The translations under genes were made by a program, and so were the position numbers. A DNA stretch of 64,000 bases from contig CAYOUG010000001.1 of NCBI GenBank assembly GCA_964407105.1, positions 164,273 to 228,272 on the forward strand, read 5' to 3'. Below, piece after piece: positions 24,513 to 42,503 of the stretch. The stretch is from an uncultured Candidatus Saccharibacteria bacterium (GTDB lineage Bacteria; Patescibacteriota; Minisyncoccia; Phycocordibacterales; CALRHW01). The notes under the pieces were generated by a model. That model was not told the origin of the DNA. It worked only from the letters and a program-made list of their open reading frames with translations, and searched no databases. Positions within the stretch are counted from its first letter, which is position 1. Each line of letters opens with the position of its first letter.

Positions 24513-25370
24513 ATGAAAGCTAAAAAATCACTCGGACAAAATTTTTTAAAATCAAAACACGCACTACGTGTGATTGTTGAATCTGCAAATATTGCGCCCA
24601 CTGATACCGTGCTTGAAATAGGGCCGGGAAAGGGGGCGCTTACCGCCGGACTTTTAGAAAAAGCGGGACACGTCATAGCGATAGAAAAAGACGATGAACT
24701 TGTGCCTTTTTTGCAAGAAATGTTTGCCGCAGATATTGCGACAAAAAAACTTACACTTATTCATGGAGATATTATGGAAATGACGATTGAGGAAATTTTT
24801 GCACAAGCACGAAATGCTGGCGCAAGCGATGTAACGGCAGAATCATACAAACTCGTTGCAAATATTCCATACTATATTACAGGTGCACTCATTCGAATGT
24901 TTTTGGAGACGGCGCGCCAGCCACGCCTCATGGTGCTCATGCTCCAAAAAGAGGTGGCGCGCCGCATCACCGCAACCGACAAAAAAGAAAGCTTACTCTC
25001 ACTTTCAGTAAAAGCATACGGCACACCTAAATATATAGAGACCGTCAAAGCAATGTTTTTTTCACCACGCCCAAACGTAGACTCCGCAATTTTACTTATT
25101 AAAGATATTTCAAAAGCATTTTTCAAACGGGACACAGATACAAAAGAAACATCTGGCATCCAACCAACCACACACGCCGAAGAAACTTTTTTCAAAATTA
25201 TCAAAGCCGGCTTTGCACACAAAAGAAAACTTTTGGTGCGCAATCTTGAAAGCGATTTTTCAAAAGAAAAAATTTCTACAACTTTTGCTTCGTGCAACCT
25301 TTCTCTAAAGGCGCGTCCAGAAGATCTTTCTCTTGATCAGTGGAAGTGTGTAACAACACAAATAAAATAA
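24513..25370 (+). CDS. rsmA: 16S rRNA (adenine1518/1519-N6)-dimethyltransferase
   Basis: SLGQNFL start and GPGKGALT SAM motif. Confidence 0.9.
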   Translation: MKAKKSLGQNFLKSKHALRVIVESANIAPTDTVLEIGPGKGALTAGLLEKAGHVIAIEKDDELVPFLQEMFAADIATKKLTLIHGDIMEMTIEEIFAQARNAGASDVTAESYKLVANIPYYITGALIRMFLETARQPRLMVLMLQKEVARRITATDKKESLLSLSVKAYGTPKYIETVKAMFFSPRPNVDSAILLIKDISKAFFKRDTDTKETSGIQPTTHAEETFFKIIKAGFAHKRKLLVRNLESDFSKEKISTTFASCNLSLKARPEDLSLDQWKCVTTQIK

Positions 25371-25860: not shown

Positions 25861-26949
25861 TTAGATGACGTTAAGTATAGCAGGTGAATTTTTATCACTC
25901 ACACCATTGATGTTAACAACATAAATAAAGATTTTTAATCCACTCACACCATTACCACCATTATCTTTAAAAATATCACCCAGATTTGGAAGGTTCGATG
26001 GGGCTTCTAAAGTAAAAGTGAGGGTTTTTCCATCAGAAGAAGAAAGATTTGAAAAATTACCAAAAGAAGTATGAACACTATTTCCTGTTGGTGTAAAATT
26101 TTCACCTAAAATAGTAATTTGAGAACCGATAGACGCAGAGATAGGGGAGATAGAAATAATCTTTGGAACAAAACCGCTATTGGCCGTAACTACAAAATAT
26201 GAGTTACTTTCACTTTTTCCTTTTGAATTACTTACCTCAATATCATAAATACCAACCGGAATTGTTTGTGGAATTGTAAAAACAATGTTGTTTGCATTTA
26301 CTGAAGAAACGTTGCTCACAATATGTGGTCCAAAATGGATACTATTGCCTGTCGACAAAAATCCCGTACCAGTAAGAGAAAGGGTACTGCCATAACCTCC
26401 ACTGTTTGCAGACATAAATGCAAGCTGAACTTTTGAATTATCTGCTTCTGTAAACAAACTAAATAAATCAAATTGATTTAAGCTTTGTGTGGGTTGTGTT
26501 GGTTGTGTAGATTCCTGAACCGGCAAAACATTTTCGTAAGCTGTTCCGGATTGTGCTGGTGCAGTTTTTGGAAAACCATCATTTGTGCTTATTGAAGAGG
26601 GTGAATTAAGCACTGCGCGAGTCGATGGTCCAACAAAACCGGTACCAACACCCAAACCAAGGGGGGTTAAAATTTGATCTGCATGTTCATTTTGAAAAGC
26701 AATTACAGCCTGTTTTGTGGCTGGACCAAAATACATTGTTTCATTACCCAAAGAACCCGAACCGCTTTGCGCTACAACAGTTTTTTCATTTGTGTTTAAT
26801 GTTTTTTGAAGCTCCAAAACATCAGGGCCCACATCTCCAAAAGATAAATTACGAACAAAAGTATAAGCAAAAGATGTTTTTGGTAAAAACGAAAACACAG
26901 AAAAAATAAAAATGAGTGTGTAAACAGAAATACAAAAATATCGATACAT
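25861..26949 (-). CDS. secreted protein with a peptidoglycan-binding (PG_binding_1-like) domain and IPT/TIG-like repeats
   Basis: Signal peptide; FGDVGPDVLELQKTLN..YFGPATKQAVIAFQ matches the PG-binding pattern; two Ig-like repeats with GTGF..GNS.HFG. Confidence 0.55.
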   Translation of the reverse strand: MYRYFCISVYTLIFIFSVFSFLPKTSFAYTFVRNLSFGDVGPDVLELQKTLNTNEKTVVAQSGSGSLGNETMYFGPATKQAVIAFQNEHADQILTPLGLGVGTGFVGPSTRAVLNSPSSISTNDGFPKTAPAQSGTAYENVLPVQESTQPTQPTQSLNQFDLFSLFTEADNSKVQLAFMSANSGGYGSTLSLTGTGFLSTGNSIHFGPHIVSNVSSVNANNIVFTIPQTIPVGIYDIEVSNSKGKSESNSYFVVTANSGFVPKIISISPISASIGSQITILGENFTPTGNSVHTSFGNFSNLSSSDGKTLTFTLEAPSNLPNLGDIFKDNGGNGVSGLKIFIYVVNINGVSDKNSPAILNVI

Positions 26950-27039
26950 ACAGACATTGTACGGCAAAAAATACGCCTTCACAATCAATACATTTCGGTC
27001 ACACAATCTGATATACTAAAGAAAATTTCCATTAAAATC

Positions 27040-28035
27040 ATGAAATTACCAAGCATTAAAATAATACTCGTTGCGATCACATGTGTTGCGGTAGTAAGTG
27101 CCATTTATGTTTTAATACAAAAAAATAATAAAACAGAAATAAATAGTGTAACCACAAACACACTTTCTCCAGAATTAGTAAGTTCAAGCGTAAAGGGTTC
27201 AGCTTACATCGACAGCGACAAAGACGGTTTGTACGATTGGGAAGAAATAATCTGGAAAACCGACCCGCTGAACCCAGATACAGATCAAGATGGCATTCTC
27301 GATGGGGAAGATGTAAAAAAAACACCATCATTTGATACCGCGACACAAAAACTTACAAAAACAGATGGTGTAAATGATATAAACACACAAACAGACTCAC
27401 CACAAAACCTAACCCTCACAGACAAAATCGCCCAAGCAGCATTTACACAGTACGCACTTTTAAAACAAAGTGGTAAAAAAATTACTGCAGATCAAGCGCA
27501 AGAAATTGCACACAACATTATTGCAAATCAACCGTTGGTGGAGGGCTTGAAAAAATTTACTGAATTAAATATTCCAAACAAAGTAGAAAATTCTTCGGAC
27601 AATATTTATACATACGGCAACGAGGTGTGGGATATTATGGTAAAAGACACGCCAAAAAATGTAAAACTTGAAAATGAATACACTATTCTACTTACCGCAC
27701 TTCAAAAAGAAGATGAGAAATATCTTGAAAAACTTGATCCAATTATTTTGGGTTATCAAAACACAATAAAAGATTTGCTTTCAATGAAGGTGCCCGCAGG
27801 CGCAGTTTCTGCTCATTTAAATTTTGTAAACAATATGAATGGCGTTCTTGCTTTCATTGAAGACATGCGCGCGTATTATAAAGATACTGCACGTGGTTTG
27901 GGTGCTGTAACGTACTATGGTGGGCAGGTGATAGAACTTCGTGCATCGCTTACACAATTAGTAGAATACTTTTCATCACAGGGTGTAGAATATGTGGAGG
28001 GCGAGAGTGGCTACCTACTAACGCATAGTATATAA
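27040..28035 (+). CDS. membrane-anchored protein with DxDxDG calcium-binding-like repeats
   Basis: N-terminal TM helix; DSDKDGLYDWEE and DPLNPDTDQDGILDGED thrombospondin-type-3-like motifs; first gene of a tight operon. Confidence 0.5.
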   Translation: MKLPSIKIILVAITCVAVVSAIYVLIQKNNKTEINSVTTNTLSPELVSSSVKGSAYIDSDKDGLYDWEEIIWKTDPLNPDTDQDGILDGEDVKKTPSFDTATQKLTKTDGVNDINTQTDSPQNLTLTDKIAQAAFTQYALLKQSGKKITADQAQEIAHNIIANQPLVEGLKKFTELNIPNKVENSSDNIYTYGNEVWDIMVKDTPKNVKLENEYTILLTALQKEDEKYLEKLDPIILGYQNTIKDLLSMKVPAGAVSAHLNFVNNMNGVLAFIEDMRAYYKDTARGLGAVTYYGGQVIELRASLTQLVEYFSSQGVEYVEGESGYLLTHSI

Positions 28036-28038
28036 TTA

Positions 28039-29013
28039 ATGGCAAAAGACATTACTGTGTCATCAATTTATTCTAAAAAATTATTTTTTACTGTTTTCTC
28101 TCTCGCTCTGTCTATCGGCTTTTTCATTCCTTTACATGTAAAGGCGCAAGTTGCTGTGCCTGTTGTTGAGCTTGTAGGATCTCCACTCCTAACCAATACG
28201 ATATTTATAATGGCAAGCACCGACGATATCGCTTGGAACACAGCGTATCTTGCTGCAAAAGAAACAGGAGTTGCAAAATATAAAAATATACCAATTACCG
28301 GAGTGCAAGTCGCTGCCGGAAGTACACTGAGCGCTGATTCAATTGCGACTACATTCCTCAAGCCACTCATCCGCAACATGACCAACTCGCTTGTACAATG
28401 GATAAACAGCGGTTTTCAAGGATCACCACTTTTTGTAAGCGATCCAGCAAAGTTTTTTATTGGTGTTGCAGATAGAATAGCGGGAAGTTTTATAGAGGGT
28501 TCAGATCTCGCATTTCTCTGTTCGCCTTTTTCTTTAAAAATAAGACTCGCGCTCAATTTAAATTATTCAGCACGTTTTCGTGATGAAATTGGTTGTACAC
28601 TTACAGATGTAGTAGAAAATATAGATAATTTTCAAAAAGATTTTACTCAGGGTGGATGGGATGCGTGGTTTAGCATGACACAAAATCCACAAAACAACGC
28701 ACAAGGTGCATATCTTTCTTCTCAAAGTCAGCTTGATATCCGTCTTGCAAGTGCGCTTGGTATAGAAGTGGCTCAGCTTGACTGGGGTCAAGGTTTTCTA
28801 TCTTTCAGAGACTGTGAAATTTATGATCAGACTGGAAAATGTATAAAATACGGCCCCACAAAAACACCCGGAACTGTTATCAATGGTCAGTTACAAGACG
28901 CACTAGGTACAGATCTTTCACAGCTCGAGCTTGCCGATGAATTTGATGAAATTGTAGCGGCGCTAGTAGGTCAGCTATTTAGCAAAATCCAACAGGGTTT
29001 GATCAACTCATAA
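28039..29013 (+). CDS. secreted hypothetical protein (operon member)
   Basis: Signal peptide ..IPLHVKAQVAV; start is 4 nt after the previous stop. Confidence 0.5.
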   Translation: MAKDITVSSIYSKKLFFTVFSLALSIGFFIPLHVKAQVAVPVVELVGSPLLTNTIFIMASTDDIAWNTAYLAAKETGVAKYKNIPITGVQVAAGSTLSADSIATTFLKPLIRNMTNSLVQWINSGFQGSPLFVSDPAKFFIGVADRIAGSFIEGSDLAFLCSPFSLKIRLALNLNYSARFRDEIGCTLTDVVENIDNFQKDFTQGGWDAWFSMTQNPQNNAQGAYLSSQSQLDIRLASALGIEVAQLDWGQGFLSFRDCEIYDQTGKCIKYGPTKTPGTVINGQLQDALGTDLSQLELADEFDEIVAALVGQLFSKIQQGLINS

Positions 29014-29014
29014 T

Positions 29015-31114
29015 ATGAAACGATTTTTTAGAAACAAAAAAACACGCTTCATCTTTGCAACACTTGTTGTGGCATTTTTCATATGTATTCCTCTAGTTAC
29101 TTTCGCAGAGGTCACTTCACCTTCATCACCAGCACCGGGGTGGTTTGGAACCGAAATTCTTGCTGCAGTAACTGGAGTTTTTAATAGACTCCTAGCCCTT
29201 GCTGGCGCATTTGCCATGATGCTCACAAGTTGGATTTTGTGGGCTTCCGGATCACTTCTTACTGAAGTATTGAAATACACCGTTCTGAACATGTCACAAA
29301 ATATTAATTCTATTAGCGCTATAAATGTTGCGTGGACAGTATTCAGAGATCTCGCAAACATGTTTTTCATTTTTATACTTCTTTATGCGGCCATCGGCAC
29401 CATTTTAGGTTTAAGCGGCGTCAATGCAAAAAAAATGGTCGTCAATATAGTTATTATTGCGCTTCTTATAAATTTCAGCTTATTTTTCACAAAAATAATT
29501 ATCGACGCATCAAACATCGTTACTATTGGTTTTTACAATAGAATAACCTCATCTATAGGAGAAAATGGTGGTCTTGCCACACCTTTTATGAACAAAATGG
29601 GGATAGTGGGTATGTTTAGTATTGATGGAATAATGTCTGATAGTGGTGCCTTATCATCAAACAAAACCCTCACAGAAATAGCGCTCACTGGAATAATGGG
29701 CTCCATATTTATTCTTGTAACCGCTTTCGTCTTTTTTGCTGCCAACATTATGTTTATTGGCCGATTTGTGATTTTGATATTTTTAATGATACTTTCTCCG
29801 CTTGCTTTTGCTGCAATGGCATTACCGAAAGATAAATATTCATCTGATTGGTGGAAGTCCTTACTTGATCAAGCGCTTTTTGCACCAGCCTTTTTAGCGA
29901 TGATGTATGCCACCTTACTCATTGTAGAGGGCTTAAATATACCAAATGCTGGTTTTGCAAAAGTATTTGTCCCTGGAGAAGATGGTAAGGCACCAGATCT
30001 TGCTATGGTACAGGTTCTTATGAATTACATAATTATCATAGTAATGATAATAGCCTGTCTTATTATTGCTAAAAAATTTGGCGCACACGGATCAGGTGAA
30101 ATGATCAAGCGTGGCCAAAAACTCCGTGGTTGGGCACAAGGTAAGGTAGGGAGGGGGGCTTTGCGAGGAACGGGTCTTGCTGCCCTTGATAGAAAATTTG
30201 CAGATTCAGATTTTGCAAAAACACGAACAGGTAACATTTTTCGCAGTATGACAACCGGCGCAATTACCAATGCAAAATTTGGCTCTGATACTTCAATACA
30301 AAAAGTAGATAAGGCAAACAAAGATCTTGATAAAAAATACAATGAGGGTGTAATGAAAGGTGTGGAGAAAAAATTTGAAAAAAGTTTGCCAGAACAACGA
30401 AAAAACTATATTGGCGATTTAAACAAAAAAATTGATGAATCTGGTACAAAAAAGTTTGAGACCGAAGCACAACTTATGACAAAACGAGAAGAGCTCGAAG
30501 ATGCTATCGCAAATGGAAAAGCAGTACGACCAGAAAGAGAACTACCTAAACTAGAACGAGAAATAACCGAAAGAGAAGGGCAGTTGCGTCGAGCTTCATC
30601 GGGCGGGCTAGCCATTCCTAAGAGTGAAATTGATCGTGTCAATACAGAAATTGCAGAAAGAAGAGAGAAGGTAAGAGTTACAAAAGAAATACAAAAACAA
30701 ATTGAAAATTTAAAAAAAGAGTCAGACACCACACAAAAAGAAATTAGTAGTTTTGAACAAGAAAAGAAAACTACTCAATCTAATATGGATGGTGGCTTTG
30801 TCGCTACAAAAAGCGAAAAGGGTCGTTGGTTAAATCAGGCATACGAAGAAAAAGCTAAAAGTCTCGAATCCTTGGGACCAACACTAGAAGCTGGTAAGAA
30901 AATGTTCCCCGGAACATCAAGAGTTATCGGTGCTCTTGGTAAACTTCGTCCAACATATCTAGATTTTGAAATGGGTCTAACAGCAAAAAAAGATGTCGTA
31001 AAAGAGTTGCGCAAAAAAACACAAGGTGGCGGTAAAGAAAAGGATATAATAAATCAACTTAAAGAATCTCTAAAAAATGCAGGTGAATTGGAAGATGGGG
31101 GAGAAAAAAAATAA
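29015..31114 (+). CDS. VirB6/TrbL-like polytopic membrane protein with a long charged coiled-coil C-terminus
   Basis: About 360-aa N-terminal region with six to eight TM helices then a roughly 340-aa K/E-rich coiled coil; topology and position upstream of PrgI-like/VirB4 genes. Confidence 0.5.
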   Translation: MKRFFRNKKTRFIFATLVVAFFICIPLVTFAEVTSPSSPAPGWFGTEILAAVTGVFNRLLALAGAFAMMLTSWILWASGSLLTEVLKYTVLNMSQNINSISAINVAWTVFRDLANMFFIFILLYAAIGTILGLSGVNAKKMVVNIVIIALLINFSLFFTKIIIDASNIVTIGFYNRITSSIGENGGLATPFMNKMGIVGMFSIDGIMSDSGALSSNKTLTEIALTGIMGSIFILVTAFVFFAANIMFIGRFVILIFLMILSPLAFAAMALPKDKYSSDWWKSLLDQALFAPAFLAMMYATLLIVEGLNIPNAGFAKVFVPGEDGKAPDLAMVQVLMNYIIIIVMIIACLIIAKKFGAHGSGEMIKRGQKLRGWAQGKVGRGALRGTGLAALDRKFADSDFAKTRTGNIFRSMTTGAITNAKFGSDTSIQKVDKANKDLDKKYNEGVMKGVEKKFEKSLPEQRKNYIGDLNKKIDESGTKKFETEAQLMTKREELEDAIANGKAVRPERELPKLEREITEREGQLRRASSGGLAIPKSEIDRVNTEIAERREKVRVTKEIQKQIENLKKESDTTQKEISSFEQEKKTTQSNMDGGFVATKSEKGRWLNQAYEEKAKSLESLGPTLEAGKKMFPGTSRVIGALGKLRPTYLDFEMGLTAKKDVVKELRKKTQGGGKEKDIINQLKESLKNAGELEDGGEKK

Positions 31115-31120
31115 AAAACA

Positions 31121-31870
31121 ATGGATGACTTTCAAATAAAAAAAATAATACAAGAACAGTGGGGTATACTTCCTGAAAACATTCAAAAACTTATTCTGTC
31201 CTCGGAATTTGATTCAAAAATCGAACAAATTTCTAGAAAATACAATCTTCTTGGAAATCAAACTGTTAACCTAAAAAATGAGATTGTTTTTGTGCTTCTT
31301 GGTCTTGTTCATCTTATGGATTTTACCCAAAATCTAGAGCATGAACTTGCAATTCCAAAAGAACAGGCACGCTTACTAGCTCAAGAGGTTGGCGCACAGA
31401 TATTTGCCAATGTAAAAGAATCTCTCAGGGAACTTGGCAAAACACTCGAATTGGAAAATGCTCAAGATTCTCAGAATTCATTGGGTACAGACCAGCAAAA
31501 ACCAACAAATCAAAACGTTCCACCCCCAATCGCAACGGTACAAGGAGTACACATGCAAAAAGAATCGCTCACCCCAGAAACACAAGACAGTATAATTACT
31601 GCTAGCGCGAATGTAGAAAAGGAAGAGGGGAACGTGCAAACAGGTATTGTAGAAGACGTTGCATCATTAAACAAAGAAACCTTACTTAAAGAAATAGAAT
31701 CTCCAGCTCTCATTACCGCCCACGCATCAACCCCAGAATACGAACCAACAATAATAGATAAAAAACTTAGTGGCATAATGAAAGTGCCACGCGAAGAGGT
31801 GCGTGTAAATGTAGATGCAAACACACCAAGCTATAAAGGTACCGATCCATACCGTGAACCTTTAGAATAA
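31121..31870 (+). CDS. soluble acidic hypothetical protein (operon member)
   Basis: No TM helix; lies between the VirB6-like and PrgI-like genes. Confidence 0.45.
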   Translation: MDDFQIKKIIQEQWGILPENIQKLILSSEFDSKIEQISRKYNLLGNQTVNLKNEIVFVLLGLVHLMDFTQNLEHELAIPKEQARLLAQEVGAQIFANVKESLRELGKTLELENAQDSQNSLGTDQQKPTNQNVPPPIATVQGVHMQKESLTPETQDSIITASANVEKEEGNVQTGIVEDVASLNKETLLKEIESPALITAHASTPEYEPTIIDKKLSGIMKVPREEVRVNVDANTPSYKGTDPYREPLE

Positions 31871-31874
31871 AATT

Positions 31875-32300
31875 ATGAGATTTCAAGTCCCACAATTTAC
31901 TGACGTTGAAGATAAAATTTTTGGCGCACTCACTTTTAAGCAGTTTATATATCTTGCTGGAAGCGCTGGAGCATGCGTCATTTTGTACTACATCATTCCG
32001 TTCAAAATTATTTCTTTCATGTTTATGTTTCCGATAATCGCTTTCGGCCTTGCTTTAGCATTTTACAAAGTAAACAATAAACCTTTTATTCGTGTAGTAG
32101 AAGCATTTTTTAAATATTCAGTCACAAGCAAACTATATATTTGGAAACATGAACCCAAAAAAATAACGGCAATGTCTACTCCAAAAGAATTTTCGTCATC
32201 TTTTTTACCAAAACTTTCAGAAAGTAAGCTAAAAGATCTCACCTGGACACTTGACGTTACAGAAAATATAAACAAAAAGGTTCCTTCTGATTTTAAATAA
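31875..32300 (+). CDS. PrgI/VirB3-like small membrane protein
   Basis: 141 aa with two central TM helices; immediately precedes VirB4 as in Gram-positive-type T4SS. Confidence 0.5.
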   Translation: MRFQVPQFTDVEDKIFGALTFKQFIYLAGSAGACVILYYIIPFKIISFMFMFPIIAFGLALAFYKVNNKPFIRVVEAFFKYSVTSKLYIWKHEPKKITAMSTPKEFSSSFLPKLSESKLKDLTWTLDVTENINKKVPSDFK

Positions 32301-32327
32301 AAGGAATATAGGATATAATTTCTAAAT

Positions 32328-32972
32328 ATGGCAACCAATGCACGAGCTTCTCAAGAATTTGTGCCGATTAATGACATTCAAAATGGCATTGTCACTTTAA
32401 AAGACGGCTCATTACGTGCTGTACTTATGGCATCTTCTGTAAATTTTTCTCTTAAATCAGAAGAAGAGCGTGCAGCCATCATGTTTCAATTTCAAGATTT
32501 TTTAAACTCTCTTGATTTCACTGTACAAATTTTTATTCAATCACGACGTCTAGACATTCGTCCATACATTAATCTTCTTGAAGAACGCAAGAAAGCGCAA
32601 GTAAACGATCTCATGAAAATTCAGGTGGAAGAATATATTGGTTTTATCAAAAACTTTACCGACAACACCAATATTATGACTAAACATTTTTTCATAATCG
32701 TGCCGTATTCTCCTGCAATTCTTCAAAAGGGTGGCAATAATCCCGTCACTGGTTTATTTAAAAATAAAAAAAATGATGAAGAGATAAAAATTAATACACA
32801 AGAGGCATTCGAGGAACGACGCACTCAGCTAGAACAACGTTTGGCGGTGGTGGAGCAGGGGCTTGTCCGCTCAGGAGTACGTGTAGTACAGCTTGGAACA
32901 GAAGAAATCGTCGAACTTTTTTACAAAATTTTCAATCCCGGCGAAGCAGAGAAACCAATTCACATTCAATAA
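32328..32972 (+). CDS. VirB4-family N-terminal domain (separate ORF)
   Basis: EFVPINDIQNGIVTLKDGSLRAVLMASSVNFSLKSEEER resembles the VirB4/TrsE/TcpF N-terminus; its stop is 1 nt before the ATG of the ATPase ORF, which is in a different frame. Confidence 0.6.
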   Translation: MATNARASQEFVPINDIQNGIVTLKDGSLRAVLMASSVNFSLKSEEERAAIMFQFQDFLNSLDFTVQIFIQSRRLDIRPYINLLEERKKAQVNDLMKIQVEEYIGFIKNFTDNTNIMTKHFFIIVPYSPAILQKGGNNPVTGLFKNKKNDEEIKINTQEAFEERRTQLEQRLAVVEQGLVRSGVRVVQLGTEEIVELFYKIFNPGEAEKPIHIQ

Positions 32973-32973
32973 T

Positions 32974-34788
32974 ATGAGCTTTTTAGAAAATATATTTGGT
33001 GGTAAAAAGAAAGAGGAAACAGTAGGAATGCTTCCTCAGGAAATTTATCAAGCGCAAACACTTGAATTAAAAGATATTATCGCACCAAGCGCCCTAAAAA
33101 TTGCTCCAAAAGAACTAAATTTAGGAGATAAAATTGTACGAACATTTTTTGTTATTTCATACCCGCGTTTTCTTGGTGAAAGTTGGTTTGCGCCAATTAT
33201 TAATCTTGACCGTGTTTTTGATGTCTCTATTTTTATACATCCAGTAGACACAGTGAAAGTTTTGAGACAATTTCAAAAAAAGGTGGCTGAGGTGCAAAGT
33301 CAGATTCATGAACGAGAAGACAAGGGAATGGTGCGTGACCCAATGCTTGATACCGCATATCAAGATCTCGAAAATCTTCGTGATAGTTTACAGCAAGCAC
33401 AAGAAAAACTTTTTGATGTTGGTTTGTACATTTCCATTTATGCAGAAAGTGATGCTGAACTCGATAAAATCGAATCAGAAATACGATCCATTCTTGAATC
33501 AAAGCTTGTTTACGTAAAACCCGCACTTTTCCAACAAGAACAAGGCTATAAAAGCGTGCTTCCTATTGGTACGGACATTCTTGAGGTGCATTCAAAGCTC
33601 AATTCTTCACCGCTTTCAAGTCTTTTTCCTTTTATTTCTTTTGATCTTACGTCTGATAAAGGAATTTTGTATGGTATCAATCGCCACAATTCAAGTCTTG
33701 TACTTTTTGATCGTTTCTCACTTGAAAATTACAACTCTATTACTTTCGCAAAGTCTGGTTCTGGAAAATCTTACGCAACAAAGCTAGAAATTTTGCGTAC
33801 CCTTATGTTTGATACCGAAGTTATAGTTATTGACCCTGAACGAGAATATGAATATATGGCTGAGGCTGTTGGTGGAAGATACTTTAAAATTTCCCTCAAC
33901 TCCGAACACCACATTAATCCATTTGATCTACCCCTTCCAGGAGAGGGTGAGTCTGGAGAAAGCGTGCTTAGAAGTAATATTATCAATCTTGTGGGTCTTT
34001 TTAGGCTTATGCTTGGTGGTATTAGTGCAGAAGAAGACGCAATTATCGACAGAGCAATTACAGAAACATACGCATTAAAAGACATCACGGCCCAGTCTAA
34101 TTTTGCAAATATAGATCCACCACTAATGTCTGATTTCGAGCTTGTGTTGGGGGGAATGGAGGGTGGGGAATCACTAGCGCAACGTCTTACTAAATACACG
34201 AGAGGTACGTGGGCTGGGTTTATCAATCGTCCTACAAATATTGATATTAATAAAAAGTTTATTGTGTTTTCGTTGCGCGACATGGAAGACGAGCTCAAAC
34301 CTATCGCCATGTACATTGTGATGCACTATATTTGGAGTGCAATTCGCAAAGAACTTAAAAAACGCCTCTTGGTAATAGACGAGGCGTGGTGGATGATGAA
34401 ATCCGAAGACACGGCCTCGTTTCTCCTCTCACTCGCTAAACGCGGCCGAAAATATTACCTCGGCCTAGCCACCATCACCCAAGACGTTGACGATTTCCTC
34501 AAGTCTCCATACGGAATGCCGATTATCACCAACTCCTCAATTCAAATTTTACTCAAACAATCTCCAACATCTATAGACAAGCTCCAACAAACATTCAACC
34601 TCACCGACGAAGAAAAATATTTACTCCTTGAAAGCTCGGTAGGAGAGGGAATTTTCTTTGCTGGCCTAAAACACGTCGCAATAAAAATTATTGCATCGTA
34701 TACCGAAGATCAAATCATTACATCCGACCCATCTCAAGTGCTTTCTATTCAACAAGCAAAACGCGATCTGGAACAGTCTCAACAATAA
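32974..34788 (+). CDS. VirB4/TrbE-family T4SS ATPase (ATPase domain)
   Basis: Walker A GSGKSYAT, Walker B LLVIDEAWWMM and the conserved C-terminal region. Confidence 0.8.
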   Translation: MSFLENIFGGKKKEETVGMLPQEIYQAQTLELKDIIAPSALKIAPKELNLGDKIVRTFFVISYPRFLGESWFAPIINLDRVFDVSIFIHPVDTVKVLRQFQKKVAEVQSQIHEREDKGMVRDPMLDTAYQDLENLRDSLQQAQEKLFDVGLYISIYAESDAELDKIESEIRSILESKLVYVKPALFQQEQGYKSVLPIGTDILEVHSKLNSSPLSSLFPFISFDLTSDKGILYGINRHNSSLVLFDRFSLENYNSITFAKSGSGKSYATKLEILRTLMFDTEVIVIDPEREYEYMAEAVGGRYFKISLNSEHHINPFDLPLPGEGESGESVLRSNIINLVGLFRLMLGGISAEEDAIIDRAITETYALKDITAQSNFANIDPPLMSDFELVLGGMEGGESLAQRLTKYTRGTWAGFINRPTNIDINKKFIVFSLRDMEDELKPIAMYIVMHYIWSAIRKELKKRLLVIDEAWWMMKSEDTASFLLSLAKRGRKYYLGLATITQDVDDFLKSPYGMPIITNSSIQILLKQSPTSIDKLQQTFNLTDEEKYLLLESSVGEGIFFAGLKHVAIKIIASYTEDQIITSDPSQVLSIQQAKRDLEQSQQ

Positions 34789-34795
34789 AAACTTT

Positions 34796-35224
34796 ATGGA
34801 ATCAAAACTCACCACCCTAACAGCCGGACTAATGATCACAGTAGCTGTGATTTTTGATATTATTCAAGCACTTCTTGATTTGCTTCACTTTATACCGCTT
34901 GTGGGAAACATATTTGCAATTATTTCCACCTCACTGCTTTCTGTTTTCGCGTGGCTCACATTCTATTTGTGGATGAAAATAAAAGGAATAGATTTTGCAA
35001 GCCCAAAACGCTCGCTTAGTCTTGGTGGTGGTTTTATTTTTGAACTTATTCCAATATTAAATGCTCTTCCGGGATGGACACTTGCTGTAATACTTATTAT
35101 TGGAAGTATGCGTGCTGAAGAATTGATTGCAAAAACCACAGGTATAAACGTAAATATTTCTTCTGGAGTATCGCCGATACCAAATCCAACACAAGCTATT
35201 AAAAACACACCATTGAACAAATAG
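34796..35224 (+). CDS. small polytopic membrane protein (operon member)
   Basis: Three to four TM helices; 8 nt after the VirB4 stop. Confidence 0.45.
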   Translation: MESKLTTLTAGLMITVAVIFDIIQALLDLLHFIPLVGNIFAIISTSLLSVFAWLTFYLWMKIKGIDFASPKRSLSLGGGFIFELIPILNALPGWTLAVILIIGSMRAEELIAKTTGINVNISSGVSPIPNPTQAIKNTPLNK

Positions 35225-35241
35225 TGTATCGTGCTAAAATT

Positions 35242-36264
35242 ATGAAGTACTCTTTGTATATGCTCCATTCTTCTATAAAAATAATATGTGTGACACTTGT
35301 TTTGTTTTTTGCATGCACACTAAGTGCGTCCGCTCAATTGGGCAATCCATCAGCAGAAAGCGTGCAGTTTTTTATTACACCAGAAAATCCTGGATCAAAT
35401 GAACTTGTAAAAATCAGGGTGGAAAGTTTTACATCAGACCTAAATTCAAAAGAAATTACTTGGTCACTAAATGATAAAATCCAAAAAAAAGCGGTGGGCG
35501 ACAAAAATTTTGAGTTTACTACCGGCCCACTTGGAAGTGTCTCTAAAATAACCTTTTCTACAAACACAATAACTAAAAGTGTAACCCTACGCCCAGTAGA
35601 TCTTTTTATAACTTGGCAAACCAACACCTACACACCACCTTTTTATAAAGGAAAAGCAGTGTACACCAACCAAAGCTCAATACAGTTTGTGGCACTTCCT
35701 ATGTTTGTTGGATCAAATGGAAAAACAATAGATCCAAAAAATTTAATATATAAATGGACAAGAGACGACTCCGTACTCAACAACGAATCTGGCTATGGAA
35801 AACAGGTCCTTTCTACTAGCGGTGGAACACTCGCAAAACCAATATTAATTAATCTTGAGGTTACGAGTGCCGACGGACTACTTAAAGCGAAAAGAGAAAT
35901 CGAGGTTGAAGGAAATCTTCCAAGAATTATATTTTACGAAAATCATCCACTCTACGGAATCACGTATCGCAATGCATTACCAGACATCTTTACACTCACA
36001 AGTAAAGAAATAAGTCTTGTCGCCGCACCTTATTTTTTTGATATAAGTGGAAAATTAGACTCAAATCTTTCATATGTATGGAAAATGAATGGGGAAGTCA
36101 TAGAAAATCAAGAAAATCCATCAACACTTACACTTCGAAGACCTGAGGGTTCTGCTGGTGGCAAAGCAAATATATCTCTTATGACTTCTCACCTTGCAAA
36201 AATTATTCAATTTACAAACAAATCTTTAGATATTAATTTTGAAGCTCTAAATATTTCCGATTAA
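35242..36264 (+). CDS. secreted protein with three Ig-like beta-rich repeats
   Basis: Signal peptide; three roughly 100-aa repeats. Confidence 0.5.
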   Translation: MKYSLYMLHSSIKIICVTLVLFFACTLSASAQLGNPSAESVQFFITPENPGSNELVKIRVESFTSDLNSKEITWSLNDKIQKKAVGDKNFEFTTGPLGSVSKITFSTNTITKSVTLRPVDLFITWQTNTYTPPFYKGKAVYTNQSSIQFVALPMFVGSNGKTIDPKNLIYKWTRDDSVLNNESGYGKQVLSTSGGTLAKPILINLEVTSADGLLKAKREIEVEGNLPRIIFYENHPLYGITYRNALPDIFTLTSKEISLVAAPYFFDISGKLDSNLSYVWKMNGEVIENQENPSTLTLRRPEGSAGGKANISLMTSHLAKIIQFTNKSLDINFEALNISD

Positions 36265-36269
36265 AATAT

Positions 36270-37115
36270 ATGATAAAAAACGCAAAAAAATATCTTGGTT
36301 TTATAATAATTTTGATAACTATTTTAAGTATACATGGTGCTTTTTTAACAAAAACGACTTTTGCAGAGCTTGAATCTGGTGGCACCACAGGAGGTTTTAC
36401 AAATTACAAACCCCTTATTCCACTTCCAATTGGACCAAACGGTAGCAACGAAACACCTACAGAACTTTCAAAATACCTACCTGCAATGTTTCAATTTTTT
36501 ATAGGTATTGCTGGAGTACTTGCTGTGGTAATGATCGTAATTGGTGGAATACAATATATGTCTACTGATGCGGTCTATGGTAAAAGTGCTGGAAAAGAAA
36601 AAATCGCTCAAGCACTTGGTGGACTTTTGCTCGCTATTGTTGCTTGGCTTATTCTTTATTCCATCAACCCAAATCTTTTAAATACAGTTCTTGGTGGGCC
36701 AAATACACAAATGGCCAGTTCAACACCAACAAACCCAATACCACACACAGCAAGAGTAACGTATCACGTACAAAACACATATGGACCACCAACAACCGAG
36801 TGTAAAAGTACATATCCATCACCACAAGCATGTGCACAATCACTTACACAACTAGAAGCATCATATCCAACGCCACCATATGCCAACGTATCTGTTGGTT
36901 GTGATGTTGAGTGCAATCCAACACCTCCACCCCCACCATATTCACTTATGGTTACCTATCATGTACAGGGCATACCAGGACCACCAAAAGTAGCCTGTTA
37001 CCCTTATACTGGTCCCGTAGAATGTCAAACAGCATCTGAAAACTTTGATCAATCAGACCAACCAACATGGATTATTCACAACGAAATTTGTACTCAAGAG
37101 TGTACAGAACAATAA
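36270..37115 (+). CDS. VirB2/TrbC-like pilin candidate with a C-terminal tandem Cys-containing repeat
   Basis: Long signal peptide then two hydrophobic helices separated by a short loop (LPAMFQFFIGIAGVLAVVMIVIGG / KIAQALGGLLLAIVAWLILY); C-terminal repeats RVTYHVQNTYGPPTTEC and MVTYHVQGIPGPPKVAC. Confidence 0.5.
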   Translation: MIKNAKKYLGFIIILITILSIHGAFLTKTTFAELESGGTTGGFTNYKPLIPLPIGPNGSNETPTELSKYLPAMFQFFIGIAGVLAVVMIVIGGIQYMSTDAVYGKSAGKEKIAQALGGLLLAIVAWLILYSINPNLLNTVLGGPNTQMASSTPTNPIPHTARVTYHVQNTYGPPTTECKSTYPSPQACAQSLTQLEASYPTPPYANVSVGCDVECNPTPPPPPYSLMVTYHVQGIPGPPKVACYPYTGPVECQTASENFDQSDQPTWIIHNEICTQECTEQ

Positions 37116-37118
37116 ACC

Positions 37119-38357
37119 ATGCTTAAAAAAATTATTATCGTCATAGCTATTATTATCTTACTCGCTTTAGGCGCATTTACTTATCTTTATTTCACATCAC
37201 CAGAAAGCCTTAACTCAATCACAAGCAATGTGGGAATAAACGTGTCAGACTTTTTTCCTTTTGGACAAGAGCCCACAACACCAACAAACACCACAAACAA
37301 TTCTTCGGGAGACACCCCTCCAAACACAACGCCGGCCCAATTACGACAAATATATTCTTCTCCTGTATCTGGTGGGCAGTTTTTCAATATAAACAACAAC
37401 ACCGCTGTGCGTTTTGTGGAACAGTCAACAGGCAACGTATATGAAGCGAATACAGAAAATACGGCCATAGAACGCATCACCAACACCACAATTCCAAAAG
37501 TAACAGAAGCTACTTTTGTAACAAAAGATAGTGTGCTTTTGCGATTTTTACGAGACGATAGTGATCTTATTGAAACTGTATACGGCACAATAAGCACAAC
37601 AACATCTACAAGCACGGTGCAAAGTGAGTTTGCAGACCTTCAAACAACATTTCTCTTTCCAAACATCAAAGACCTTGTTGTTTCTCCTAAAAAAGATAAG
37701 GTTTTTTACATAAATCAATTTTCGATTGGCGCTCTAGGTACCATTGCAAGTCCTAATGGTTCAAATAAGACTGTGGCGTTTGAATCTCCAATTCGTGAGT
37801 GGAACACGCAGTGGCCGACCACCACCACACTAGCACTCACCACAGCGCCAAGTGCACAGGTATCAGGATATTTATATTTCGTAAACACCACCACAGGCAC
37901 GCAACAAAAAATATTAGCAAATATTCCAGGACTAACCACTCTCACAAACACAAACACTTCGAGCGTGCTCTACACAAAAAATAATCTCAAAGGAAGTTTT
38001 TCCCTAAATTTACTTAACACAAAAACAGGAACATCAACCCTTCTTTCTTTTGGTCAAACATTACCAGAAAAATGTGTGTGGAGTAAAAAAAATGTAAACG
38101 TAATGTATTGTGCGGTGCCAAAAGTTATACCAAAAGGGGAATATCCTGATATTTGGTATATGGGTCTTGTTTCTTTTAGTGACAAACTCTGGCGTATCAA
38201 CACAGAAACCAACGAAACAGATATGCTTGTCGATCTTGAAAGTGTGTCTGGACGAACACTCGATGCTATAAAACTTTCTTTGGATACAAATGAAAACTAT
38301 ATTCTGTTTACAAACAAAGCTGACTCAACCTTGTGGAGTTTCGCACTAAATAAATAA
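37119..38357 (+). CDS. membrane-anchored Thr/Asn-rich extracytoplasmic protein (last gene of the operon)
   Basis: N-terminal TM helix, low-complexity TPTNTTNNSSGDTPPNTTP linker, beta-rich C-terminal domain. Confidence 0.5.
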   Translation: MLKKIIIVIAIIILLALGAFTYLYFTSPESLNSITSNVGINVSDFFPFGQEPTTPTNTTNNSSGDTPPNTTPAQLRQIYSSPVSGGQFFNINNNTAVRFVEQSTGNVYEANTENTAIERITNTTIPKVTEATFVTKDSVLLRFLRDDSDLIETVYGTISTTTSTSTVQSEFADLQTTFLFPNIKDLVVSPKKDKVFYINQFSIGALGTIASPNGSNKTVAFESPIREWNTQWPTTTTLALTTAPSAQVSGYLYFVNTTTGTQQKILANIPGLTTLTNTNTSSVLYTKNNLKGSFSLNLLNTKTGTSTLLSFGQTLPEKCVWSKKNVNVMYCAVPKVIPKGEYPDIWYMGLVSFSDKLWRINTETNETDMLVDLESVSGRTLDAIKLSLDTNENYILFTNKADSTLWSFALNK

Positions 38358-39817: not shown

Positions 39818-41173
39818 ATGGATAGTAAAAAAATCTGGGAGAGTGTACTTGTGGATATAGAAATTAATGTTTCTAAGGCAAATTTCAATACTTGGTTCAA
39901 AGATACTTATATATATAAATTTGAAGATGGGGTGGTGTATTTGAGTGTGCCAAATAATTTTGTAAAGGAGTGGCTTCTTAAAAAATTTCACTCATATATA
40001 TTAAAGGCTTTGCGCGGACTATCAGAAAACGTTCGGTCGCTTGACTATATAGTAAGTAGGGGAGATATAAAGAAAAAAGAACCTGATCACATAAAAGGAT
40101 TAAACACTTTAGCTGAAAGCACAAACGAACTACCTTTAAATGAATTTTATATCAACAAAGACGATAATTTGAATCCAAAATACACCTTTGATTCTTTTAT
40201 TATCGGCCCATTCAACGAACTTGCTCACGCAGCAGCGCAAGCGATTATTAAAAAACCAGGAATTGTTTATAATCCACTTTTTGTTTACGGCAACACCGGA
40301 CACGGAAAAACCCACCTTATACAAGCAATAGGTAACCACATGAAACATACTTATCCTGAACGTAAGATACATTACCTTACATCAGAAAAATTTGCTGTTG
40401 ATTATATAAATTCAGTTCAAAATCAAAAAGTAAACAATTTCAAAGAAAAATATAGAAAATATGACGTTCTTATAATGGACGATATTCAATTTCTTTCAAA
40501 TAAAGAGAGGACTCAGGAAGAATTATTCCATTTGTTTAATTTTCTCTACGACAACAATAAGCAAATTATTTTTTCTTCAGACAAACATCCAAACTATATT
40601 CCACAACTCGAGGAACGTCTTAAATCGCGCTTTGGTGCTGGTATGATAGTAGACATTCCTCCTCCAGACGAAGAATCACGCGCAGCTATTTTGACTGCAA
40701 AACTAAAACAACACAACCTAGAACTACCAAAAGAGGTGCTTGCTTATCTTGCACAAACACTTTCTACAAACATTAGAGAGCTTGAGGGTGCTTTAAATGG
40801 GGTAATGATGCAAATGCAACTAAAACAAAAAGAAGTTACTCTTAATGATGTAAAAAACCTTCTTAAAAACAACACAAAACCAAAGAAAAATCTTTCACCA
40901 AAAGAAATAATAAAAATAATCGCTGATTTTTATAATATCAATGAAGAAAGTATTTATGAAAAAACAAGAAAAAAGGAAATAATAAAACCACGCCAAATTA
41001 CTATGTATATTTTACGAGAAGATTTTAATATCTCTTACCCATCAATAGGGGAGAAAATGGGAGGGCGAGACCACACTACAGTTATTCATTCGTGTGAAAA
41101 AATAAAAAACGACCTTAAATTAAATACTGACTTGGCGCAGGAGATAAATCAGATTAGATCAATGTTTGTTTGA
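39818..41173 (+). CDS. dnaA: chromosomal replication initiator protein DnaA
   Basis: AAA+ Walker A GNTGHGKTHL, Walker B LIMDDIQF, sensor motifs and C-terminal DNA-binding domain. Confidence 0.95.
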   Translation: MDSKKIWESVLVDIEINVSKANFNTWFKDTYIYKFEDGVVYLSVPNNFVKEWLLKKFHSYILKALRGLSENVRSLDYIVSRGDIKKKEPDHIKGLNTLAESTNELPLNEFYINKDDNLNPKYTFDSFIIGPFNELAHAAAQAIIKKPGIVYNPLFVYGNTGHGKTHLIQAIGNHMKHTYPERKIHYLTSEKFAVDYINSVQNQKVNNFKEKYRKYDVLIMDDIQFLSNKERTQEELFHLFNFLYDNNKQIIFSSDKHPNYIPQLEERLKSRFGAGMIVDIPPPDEESRAAILTAKLKQHNLELPKEVLAYLAQTLSTNIRELEGALNGVMMQMQLKQKEVTLNDVKNLLKNNTKPKKNLSPKEIIKIIADFYNINEESIYEKTRKKEIIKPRQITMYILREDFNISYPSIGEKMGGRDHTTVIHSCEKIKNDLKLNTDLAQEINQIRSMFV

Positions 41174-41402
41174 TGTGTAAAACCTTGTGTATATAGTGTG
41201 GATAGGGATGAATAAGTGTGGATAAAAAAACAAATTATTTTTCAAAAACTACTTTATGAACAACCTATTAAAAACAATCCACAGTTCAATAATTGAAAAT
41301 AAAAAAAATACGGCTAATTATCGAGGTTTAAAAAGTTATCCAGATATCCACATCCCGTATAATAGTAATAGTATTTATATATAATATATACATACAACAT
41401 AT
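41174..41402. promoter_or_regulatory. candidate oriC: DnaA-box cluster plus an AT-rich unwinding element between dnaA and dnaN
   Basis: TGTGGATAG (41197), TGTGGATAA (41217), CAATCCACA (41275), TTATCCAGA (41336), ATATCCACA (41345), then a pure A/T tract at 41366-41400. Confidence 0.7.
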
Positions 41403-42503
41403 ATGAAAATAGAATGTCTTATCGAAAAATTAAATAAACATATAATGCAGGCTGAGCGTATTGCAGGTAAAAATCATTCACTACCAATTATTAATTGTAT
41501 TTTATTGGAAGCAACAAAAAACTCACTTCGTATTAGATCTACAAATCTTGATTTAGGTATAGAAATTACTGTGCCAGTAAAAGTATTAGAAGAGGGAAGT
41601 GTTGCTGTACCCGCTGGTATATTAGGTATGTTTTTATCGAGTTTACATACAGATAAAGCAGTAACACTAGAAACAAAAGATAATACTTTATTTGTTTTTT
41701 CTCAAAAAAATTCAACACAAATAAAAACCCAGTCAGTAGAAGATTTTCCAACATTACCAATGGTTTCAAATGAAAAACTATTTAAAATTAATCCACAAGA
41801 TTTTATAAATGGTTTAAAGTCGGTATGGTACAGCTCTTCAGTTTCAAGTATGAAATCTGAACTCTCAAGTGTTTATATTTACAGTGATGATGATAGTCTT
41901 GTTTTTGTTGCCACTGACTCATTTAGGCTTGCTGAGAAAAAAATAAAAAACCAGAAAATAAAAGAATTTAATCATCTTCTTATTCCTTTTAAAAACATTC
42001 CAGAAATAATTCGAGTACTTGAAAATACTTCAAATGAAGTGGAAATTTGTGTAGAAAAAAACCAAATATCTTTTACATACGAATACATATACCTTACTTC
42101 ACGTGTTATTGATGGTGTTTTTCCTGATTACAAACAAATTATCCCTAAAAATTTTACTACCGAAGTGGTAATGTTAAAACAAGATTTTGTAAATTCTCTT
42201 AAGACAGCAAATATTTTCTCAAACAAACTTAATCAGATAAACATAAAAGCATTACCGTCTAAAAAGATATTTGAACTTCAAACAAAAAATTCAGATATTG
42301 GAGAAAACACAAATAGTATTGATGCTGTTTTTATAGGTGAAGATATAGATATTAATTTTAATTATAAATATGTTGTTGATTGTCTCCAATCCATTGATTC
42401 AGAAAGTATTTCTTTAAATTTTACAGGAATGAATAAACCAATGGTGATATTTGGTGTTTCAGATAAATCATTTCTTTATCTTGTGATGCCTATGAATAGG
42501 TAG
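41403..42503 (+). CDS. dnaN: DNA polymerase III beta sliding clamp
   Basis: 366 aa with three-domain clamp architecture; conserved N-terminus MKIECLIEKL.. Confidence 0.9.
   Translation: MKIECLIEKLNKHIMQAERIAGKNHSLPIINCILLEATKNSLRIRSTNLDLGIEITVPVKVLEEGSVAVPAGILGMFLSSLHTDKAVTLETKDNTLFVFSQKNSTQIKTQSVEDFPTLPMVSNEKLFKINPQDFINGLKSVWYSSSVSSMKSELSSVYIYSDDDSLVFVATDSFRLAEKKIKNQKIKEFNHLLIPFKNIPEIIRVLENTSNEVEICVEKNQISFTYEYIYLTSRVIDGVFPDYKQIIPKNFTTEVVMLKQDFVNSLKTANIFSNKLNQINIKALPSKKIFELQTKNSDIGENTNSIDAVFIGEDIDINFNYKYVVDCLQSIDSESISLNFTGMNKPMVIFGVSDKSFLYLVMPMNR

Follow-up and report, generated by a model that had tools for sequence, protein, structure and literature searches.

In the type IV secretion systems (T4SSs) of Patescibacteria, as described in PMC12102498 (Microb Genom 2025), the commonest component is TrsD, which is remotely homologous to the N-terminal part of VirB4 and was detected there with the CONJScan/MacSyFinder MPF_FATA profile (2,272 homologues, 1,664 of them adjoining virB4). 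A pair of this kind is also present in the conjugative Staphylococcus aureus plasmids pGO1/pSK41 (MPF_FATA, pGO1 subclass), where a TrsD of about 200-230 aa is encoded directly 5' of the TrsE/TraE ATPase of about 600-670 aa (DUF87, VirB4-like). Here we present the analysis of a 64,000-nt stretch of DNA (hereafter the window) of an uncultured Candidatus Saccharibacteria bacterium (GCA_964407105.1, contig CAYOUG010000001.1, positions 164,273 to 228,272), in which the regions homologous to VirB4 are encoded by two adjacent open reading frames, ORF1 and ORF2. With a probability that we estimate at about 95%, the two ORFs are intact and separate cistrons that have the same orientation in a chromosomal T4SS operon of a Parcubacteria/Paceibacteria bacterium, the first encoding a TrsD-like protein that represents the first subdomain of the canonical VirB4 N-terminal domain, and the second a VirB4 ATPase without this subdomain but with the rest of the N-terminal domain and a complete P-loop motor. 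This reading is carried by the homology of both proteins to VirB4 and their complementary coverage of it, by the conservation of the stop, the start and the adjacency of the two genes, and by the existence of a fused sister form.

In the T4SSs described in PMC12102498, no function is given to TrsD. Ca. Southlakia epibionticum ML1 cannot do without trsD, and transposon data show that a cultivated relative requires the T4SS operon for its epibiotic lifestyle (PMC12102498). The T4SS genes of Patescibacteria/Paceibacteria lie near dnaA, dnaN and ksgA, most of the clusters are without a relaxase, and in Gracilibacteria trsD is mostly located away from virB4 (PMC12102498). Our statements on TrsD rely on this paper, because TrsD goes unmentioned in the main text of Guglielmini et al. 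2014 (PMC4027160). The window has the same components as the systems described there, including that of Ca. Southlakia epibionticum ML1 (VirB4, TrsD, PrgI/VirB3 and a VirB2-like pilin), at the same location and with the same trsD-virB4 adjacency, and we see no substantive difference between them. The arrangement is thus already known, and the window is a textbook case of it. What our analysis adds is modest, namely, the complementary coverage of VirB4 profiles, the split point common with pSK41 and the fused lineage of Candidatus Colwellbacteria, which are not discussed in the main text of PMC12102498.

Junction of the two genes

The features on which the analysis is centred are as follows:
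32328..32972, + strand: trsD-like gene (ORF1), 214 aa, Pfam PF26593 'TraC-like', stand-alone and homologous to full-length VirB4 over the first ~170-230 positions of the latter
32917..32922, + strand: T6 run, the sole homopolymer of at least 5 bases within 32887-32972, the stretch over which both frames are open
32970..32976, + strand: junction TAA-T-ATG, with the ORF1 stop at 32970-32972, the spacer base T at 32973 and the ORF2 start at 32974
32974..34788, + strand: virB4 ATPase gene (ORF2), 604 aa, N-terminally short as compared to canonical VirB4

The original prediction described these two ORFs as parts of one virB4 and left open whether they represent a genuine split, a programmed +1 frameshift site, or a sequencing indel or pseudogenisation. 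Its coordinates are correct: ORF1 (32328-32972) ends with TAA at 32970-32972, and ORF2 starts with ATG at 32974 in the +1 frame relative to ORF1, the two products having 818 aa together (214 + 604). The frame of ORF2, said to be open back to 32893, is in fact open from 32887, directly after a TAG codon at 32884-32886, while 32893 is the position of the earliest possible start codon (TTG). Besides the T6 run, the assembled sequence within 32900-32990 contains CAATAATATG.

An independent assembly, the Logan one of run SRR12487045, agrees with the window in every base over 4380 nt, junction included, and gene calling on this contig likewise gives two genes one base apart. The T6 run encodes L197 and F198 of ORF1 and the first base of Y199. 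In an alignment of 18 sequences, in which ORF1 has 71 invariant columns, nine invariant residues (Y199, K200, F202, N203, P204, G205, K209, P210, and I211) are located 3' of this run, and the conserved frame is held up to residue 211 of 214. An indel in the T6 run would replace these nine residues, which indicates that the assembled frame is the selected one. The final 12 bases 5' of the ORF1 stop contain neither a homopolymer nor a repeat.

Complementary coverage of VirB4 by ORF1 and ORF2

Both proteins were scored against NCBIfam profiles, including those of full-length VirB4: VirB4_plasma, CD1110 and TIGR00929. ORF1 matches the beginning of each of them (its residues 5-125 match positions 101-233 of VirB4_plasma, residues 10-124 positions 3-119 of CD1110, and residues 3-176 positions 3-167 of TIGR00929). 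The remaining parts are covered by ORF2, which matches positions 285-893 of VirB4_plasma, 283-725 of TIGR00929, and 178-733 of 752 of NF045971 conju_CD1110, the latter with 377.5 bits (E 1.2e-112), above the curated cutoff of 325. All three profiles are thus covered in a complementary manner, and the canonical single-chain VirB4 of TIGR00929 (VirB4_CagE) is here distributed over two proteins, with positions 3-167 on ORF1, positions 283-725 on ORF2, and a stop between them. The earlier assignment of ORF1 as the N-terminal domain of VirB4 agrees with these matches as far as the homology is concerned, but ORF1 corresponds only to about the first half of the canonical N-terminal domain, the remainder of which is located in ORF2 residues 1 to ~227.

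ORF1 conforms to the pattern of a stand-alone TrsD-like protein, being about 200 aa long and encoded directly 5' of a virB4-type ATPase gene. The PF26593 match was available as a precomputed one, for a protein identical to ORF1 (P0001) as well as for all its 120 best homologues; ORF1 was unmatched in a scan of a local Pfam library copy, than which PF26593 is newer. The best 120 database homologues of ORF1 are all 210-227 aa long, share 62-100% identity with it, and come from Patescibacteria/Parcubacteria. Among the best 150 representatives of 50%-identity clusters of the ORF1 family, 149 have at most 478 aa and one (P0204) has 797 aa. The AlphaFold2 (AF2) model of ORF1 (predicted local distance difference test score, pLDDT, 67.7; predicted template modelling score, pTM, 0.52) retrieves TrwK/VirB4 of R388 in all its top 14 Protein Data Bank (PDB) matches, at E 6e-4 to 7e-3; the matches ranked after these are unrelated (E > 0.15). 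A search of PDB sequences with the ORF1-family profile gave no VirB4 and only a chance match (E 1.6); the relation of ORF1 to TrwK appears at the level of fold only.

ORF2 has Pfam matches to P-loop_TraG, AAA_10 and DUF87. Its closest solved structures are the C-terminal domain of Thermoanaerobacter VirB4 (PDB 4AG5, E 5e-39) and TrwK (E 5e-8). Its Walker A (AKSGSGKS, A259-S266) and Walker B (LLVIDEAW, D469-E470) motifs are intact.

As a separate observation, certain members of the TrsD-like family found in metagenomes carry extra regions and are 280-478 aa long (P0142, P0144, P0158, P0162, P0184, P0186, P0214, P0257, and P0267).

Conservation of the two-gene arrangement in related genomes

The original prediction had pointed to a comparison with orthologous loci. 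One genome per species was scanned, which gave at least 567 relatives; 80 loci were kept, 79 of them with both genes. The same two-gene arrangement was found in 79 of 79, each in a different species of Patescibacteria. In each of them the homologue of ORF1 ends in a stop after 207-221 codons (TAA in 51 loci, TAG in 19, TGA in 9), and the ATPase gene opens with ATG and a peptide of the form M-[SG]-[ILF]-F-[DSG]-x-[LF]-x-x-K-K-K. The corresponding N-terminal peptide of ORF2, MSFLENIFGGKKK, is thus conserved across the 79 loci, and it aligns with the N-terminus of the pSK41 ATPase. The gap between trsD and virB4 ranges from -4 (an ATGA overlap) to 481 nt, being 1 nt in 10 loci and 4 nt in 14, and the frame of the ATPase gene relative to that of ORF1 is 0, +1 and +2 in 18, 36 and 25 loci, respectively. 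Frame and spacing vary freely, and therefore no conserved recoding event links the two genes.

Programmed +1 frameshifting, which would yield a single VirB4 of 818 aa, alone or beside the separate products, is for this reason very unlikely. It has in its favour that ORF2 is in the +1 frame, that both frames are open over 32887-32972, and that a U6 run (32917-32922) lies within this overlap. However, the relative frames and gaps of the orthologues, some of the gaps being occupied by an inserted gene, show no conserved recoding signal, and a shift at U6 would replace the nine invariant residues of ORF1. No slippery or shifty motif was found at the ORF1 stop, which differs from frameshift sites of the prfB type: the pre-stop codon CAA cannot re-pair in the +1 frame (AAU, in the context CAA-TAA-T), and a stimulatory Shine-Dalgarno-like element is absent. 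Moreover, ORF2 opens with an ATG of its own, at the N-terminus that is conserved in the family.

The break in the window falls exactly on a gene boundary that is common to the whole family, which a random indel would not do. A sequencing or assembly indel, or a recent pseudogenisation of a single virB4, might be considered, as full-length single-gene VirB4 proteins exist, also in the related Colwellbacteria, and as artefacts do occur in metagenome assemblies (see the 100-N run of P0289 below). Yet such an event would have had to hit precisely the place where 79 other species have a stop and a start, and it would have left the conserved frame of ORF1 intact to residue 211 of 214, with nine invariant residues after T6 and no homopolymer in the last 12 bases. 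It would also have left an ORF2 that starts with the conserved family peptide, unlike the artefactual P0289, which starts mid-domain, that has intact ATPase motifs, and that scores above the NCBIfam cutoff. Given in addition the identity of the second assembly over 4380 nt, we regard this explanation as extremely unlikely. The option of a genuine split is strongly supported, the same pair being found in 79 of 79 related species, in finished plasmids of Firmicutes and in pSK41. For annotation this means that the pair should be described as the standard trsD-like and virB4 genes of Patescibacteria and not marked as a frameshift or pseudogene of virB4.

The N-terminal peptide of the split-type ATPases (32974-33030 in the window; L001-L080 in the locus set) could be a docking or membrane-binding peptide.

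The fused form in Candidatus Colwellbacteria

The single long representative in the ORF1 family, P0204 (797 aa), runs colinear with ORF1 over residues 1-214 (43% identity) and with ORF2 over residues 230-793 (56%). In a search with P0204, 118 of the 120 best matches were 775-807 aa long, with 59-100% identity and with PF26593 and ATPase domains (among P0204 and P0271-P0389), and those with a source name are mostly labelled Candidatus Colwellbacteria. At least 118 distinct proteins thus form a real fused lineage. The fused gene has the same place in the operon, with prgI preceding it and dnaA nearby (L087:3453-5852, Candidatus Colwellbacteria, GCA_030700125.1). Judging from these sequences, the split and fused architectures coexist within the phylum.

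Single-polypeptide VirB4 proteins (those of Colwellbacteria, ~790 aa, the CD1110 family, and TrwK of R388) have the same domain order as, and are colinear with, ORF1 followed by ORF2; the difference is that the window has a stop and a new start in the linker after the first N-terminal subdomain. The split point aligns to a variable linker between the conserved YNPxxxEK and [IV]xAP motifs of the fused forms, and the N-terminal peptide typical of the split ATPases is missing from the fused proteins of Colwellbacteria. The fused protein was also modelled with AF2 (pLDDT 65.3, pTM 0.47), and this predicted structure, which aligns with TrwK over its whole length (E 8e-25, TM-score 0.42), supports colinearity with canonical VirB4.

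Two matches of 600 aa in the fused lineage, P0289 and P0385, at first had the appearance of recent splits. P0289 turned out to be artefactual, its split being due to a 100-N run (L086:1213-1667, GCA_964368705.1): its gene call starts mid-domain, and fused-protein residues 1-89 are encoded in another frame 5' of the N run.

The VirB3-VirB4 fusions of some conjugative systems (cited in PMC12102498) represent the opposite change, a fusion rather than a split. They show that evolution can redraw the boundaries that separate VirB3, the VirB4 N-terminus and the ATPase. The prgI gene of the window stands on its own, and no VirB3-VirB4 fusion was found in Patescibacteria (PMC12102498).

The split pair in plasmids

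In pSK41, trsD (25886-26569, 227 aa) is followed after a 14-nt gap by the ATPase gene (26584-28602, 672 aa). ORF2 and the pSK41 ATPase align end to end, from residue 1 (MSFLENIFGGKKKEE in ORF2 vs. MAFLKKKKQEQ in pSK41) to residue 572 (E 3e-30), and the split-type N-terminal peptide is recognisable in the plasmid protein (MAFLKKKKQEQ; L085:26584-26620). As this alignment includes the N-terminus, the split point is homologous, that is, common to both systems. The two differ in that the system of the window is chromosomal and located next to dnaA, and in that ORF1 bears only a remote similarity to the TrsD of pSK41.

Finished plasmids of cultured Firmicutes have the order prgI, a TrsD-like hypothetical gene and a DUF87 ATPase gene, all of them separate. 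The gap between the latter two is 130 nt in Clostridium perfringens pJFP838A, while in Geobacillus pGspE55-1 they overlap by 14 nt. The TrsD-like versions encoded by Firmicutes megaplasmids are 312-318 aa long (L082:3881-4819; L083:3887-4843), and in a haloarchaeal plasmid (L084:1559-4786) the C-terminal part of a 1075-aa protein, encoded just 5' of a DUF87 ATPase gene, consists of this domain. Extended TrsD-like genes are thus located upstream of a separate DUF87 ATPase gene in all three plasmid loci examined.

These extensions bear on the possibility that ORF1 is an independent accessory protein of ancient VirB4 relationship, which would remain separate from the ATPase and serve the secretion machine in a different way. 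The extra C-terminal regions of certain family members (280-478 aa, and 312-318 aa on Firmicutes plasmids), the position of the domain at the end of the 1075-aa haloarchaeal protein, the mostly non-adjoining trsD of Gracilibacteria, and the fact that PMC12102498 assigns TrsD no function would all be compatible with it. We nevertheless consider it unlikely, as in the fused lineage a short variable linker connects these very parts in the same order, the coverage of VirB4 profiles is complementary and not duplicated, and the trsD-virB4 adjacency is nearly universal in the lineage of the window.

Possible functional relationship of the two proteins

The assignment of ORF1 and ORF2 as two intact cistrons leads to a model of their action. 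Both proteins would be translated from one operon mRNA, and the 1-nt spacing might aid termination-reinitiation or coupled translation. The TrsD-like protein and the ATPase may then assemble non-covalently in trans and rebuild a VirB4-like N-terminal domain. In solved T4SS structures, the VirB4 N-terminal domain makes contact with VirB3 and keeps the ATPase at the membrane, and VirB3 is described as an interaction partner of VirB4 by which the latter is anchored to the inner membrane (PMC12102498); by analogy, the rebuilt domain would contact the VirB3-like PrgI and in this way hold the ATPase at the membrane.

Motifs resembling a Shine-Dalgarno site (GGAG/GAGG/AGGA at -20 to -4) were searched for in the 22 nt 5' of 28 gene starts of the window and in 78 related loci. 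They precede one of the 28 sampled starts in the window, and in the relatives 3 of 78 trsD starts and 1 of 78 virB4 starts, so initiation of translation seems to be largely independent of Shine-Dalgarno sites here.

Several points weigh against the interpretation presented above. By sequence, ORF1 appears to be a remote relative of NF041427 TrsD/TraD and not a member of this curated subfamily, as it scores 24 bits (E 2.8e-5, residues 9-125 vs. positions 16-142 of 201), below the 200-bit cutoff. The match of the ORF1 family to pSK41 TrsD is weak as well (hhalign E 0.025, probability 1.9%), too weak for us to claim that ORF1 is TrsD proper. Confidence in the two AF2 models (ORF1, pLDDT 67.7; fused protein, pLDDT 65.3) is no more than moderate, and the packing of domains is unreadable in them. 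Coupling of translation is not arguable from the missing Shine-Dalgarno site, since such sites are nearly absent genome-wide (1 of 28 window genes). Finally, the physical association of the ORF1 and ORF2 products is one that we infer.

A more far-reaching proposal, namely, that the TrsD-like protein and the short ATPase are complementary pieces of the VirB4 N-terminal domain acting in trans, that the split is ancestral to pSK41-type plasmids and Patescibacteria, and that the re-fusion in Colwellbacteria is secondary, is a tentative one, to which we give slightly less than even odds. If it is true, separate cistrons would permit independent dosage of the two proteins, or the ATPase could dock onto PrgI in a regulated way. 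Separate genes would also leave room, in some species, for an intervening-sequence-like cassette between them, which would possibly cleave the operon mRNA. Taken together, the complementary coverage of VirB4, the split point common with pSK41 and the fused lineage offer a testable hypothesis for the function of TrsD, as a detachable first subdomain of VirB4.

Operon context in the window

The T4SS operon (27040-38357) is located between ksgA (RrnaAD, 24513-25370) and dnaA-dnaN (39818-42503), and thus probably next to the replication origin. Its genes identified besides ORF1 and ORF2, and the neighbouring replication genes, are:
31875..32300, + strand: prgI (VirB3-like small membrane protein), PF12666 PrgI, E 4.3e-10, 40.4 bits vs. 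a cutoff of 27, directly 5' of ORF1
36270..37115, + strand: T4SS pilin-like gene of the same operon, PF18895 T4SS_pilin, E 1.2e-6, 28.9 bits vs. a cutoff of 26.6
39818..41173 and 41403..42503, + strand: dnaA and dnaN, Pfam Bac_DnaA, DnaA_N, Bac_DnaA_C and DNA_pol3_beta_1-3, just 3' of the T4SS operon

The upstream position of prgI is the same in Colwellbacteria, C. perfringens pJFP838A and Geobacillus pGspE55-1. No Pfam match was found at E <= 0.001 for the operon genes 27040-28035, 28039-29013 and 37119-38357, nor at E <= 0.01 for the gene 35224-36264.

Intervening-sequence-like cassettes in relatives

In 5 of the 79 loci, a gene of 114-134 aa of the PF05635 family (23S rRNA-intervening sequence protein, 23S_rRNA_IVP) is inserted between trsD and virB4; genes of this kind are absent from the window. 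Two of the five inserted ORFs were tested for the PF05635 match (E 1e-35 and 1e-39). The cassettes, all outside the window, are located as follows:
trsD-virB4 cassettes: L007:4649-5112, L010:4640-5060, L026:4640-5105, L028:1498-1978, L043:4315-4756

Long-range inverted repeats (15-34 nt, 76-93% complementarity) flank every cassette gene. When two of the cassettes were folded, the entire insert was closed by these repeats into a terminal stem (z -2.86 and -2.83; none of 100 shuffles folded equally well). The insert is missing from the relatives nearest to each carrier (85-95% VirB4 identity), and therefore the gains or losses look independent.

Further PF05635-like genes are located upstream of trsD in 13 loci, in the region of the T4SS operon of the window:
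upstream PF05635-like genes: L004:3068-3382, L005:3028-3408, L022:3074-3421, L025:2254-2595, L026:3114-3473, L043:2620-2976, L046:3605-3916
upstream PF05635-like genes, continued: L047:3144-3506, L052:3610-3939, L055:3168-3512, L061:3680-3967, L063:3134-3496, L064:3192-3563

Two of the carriers of cassettes between trsD and virB4, L026 and L043, thus have two copies each.

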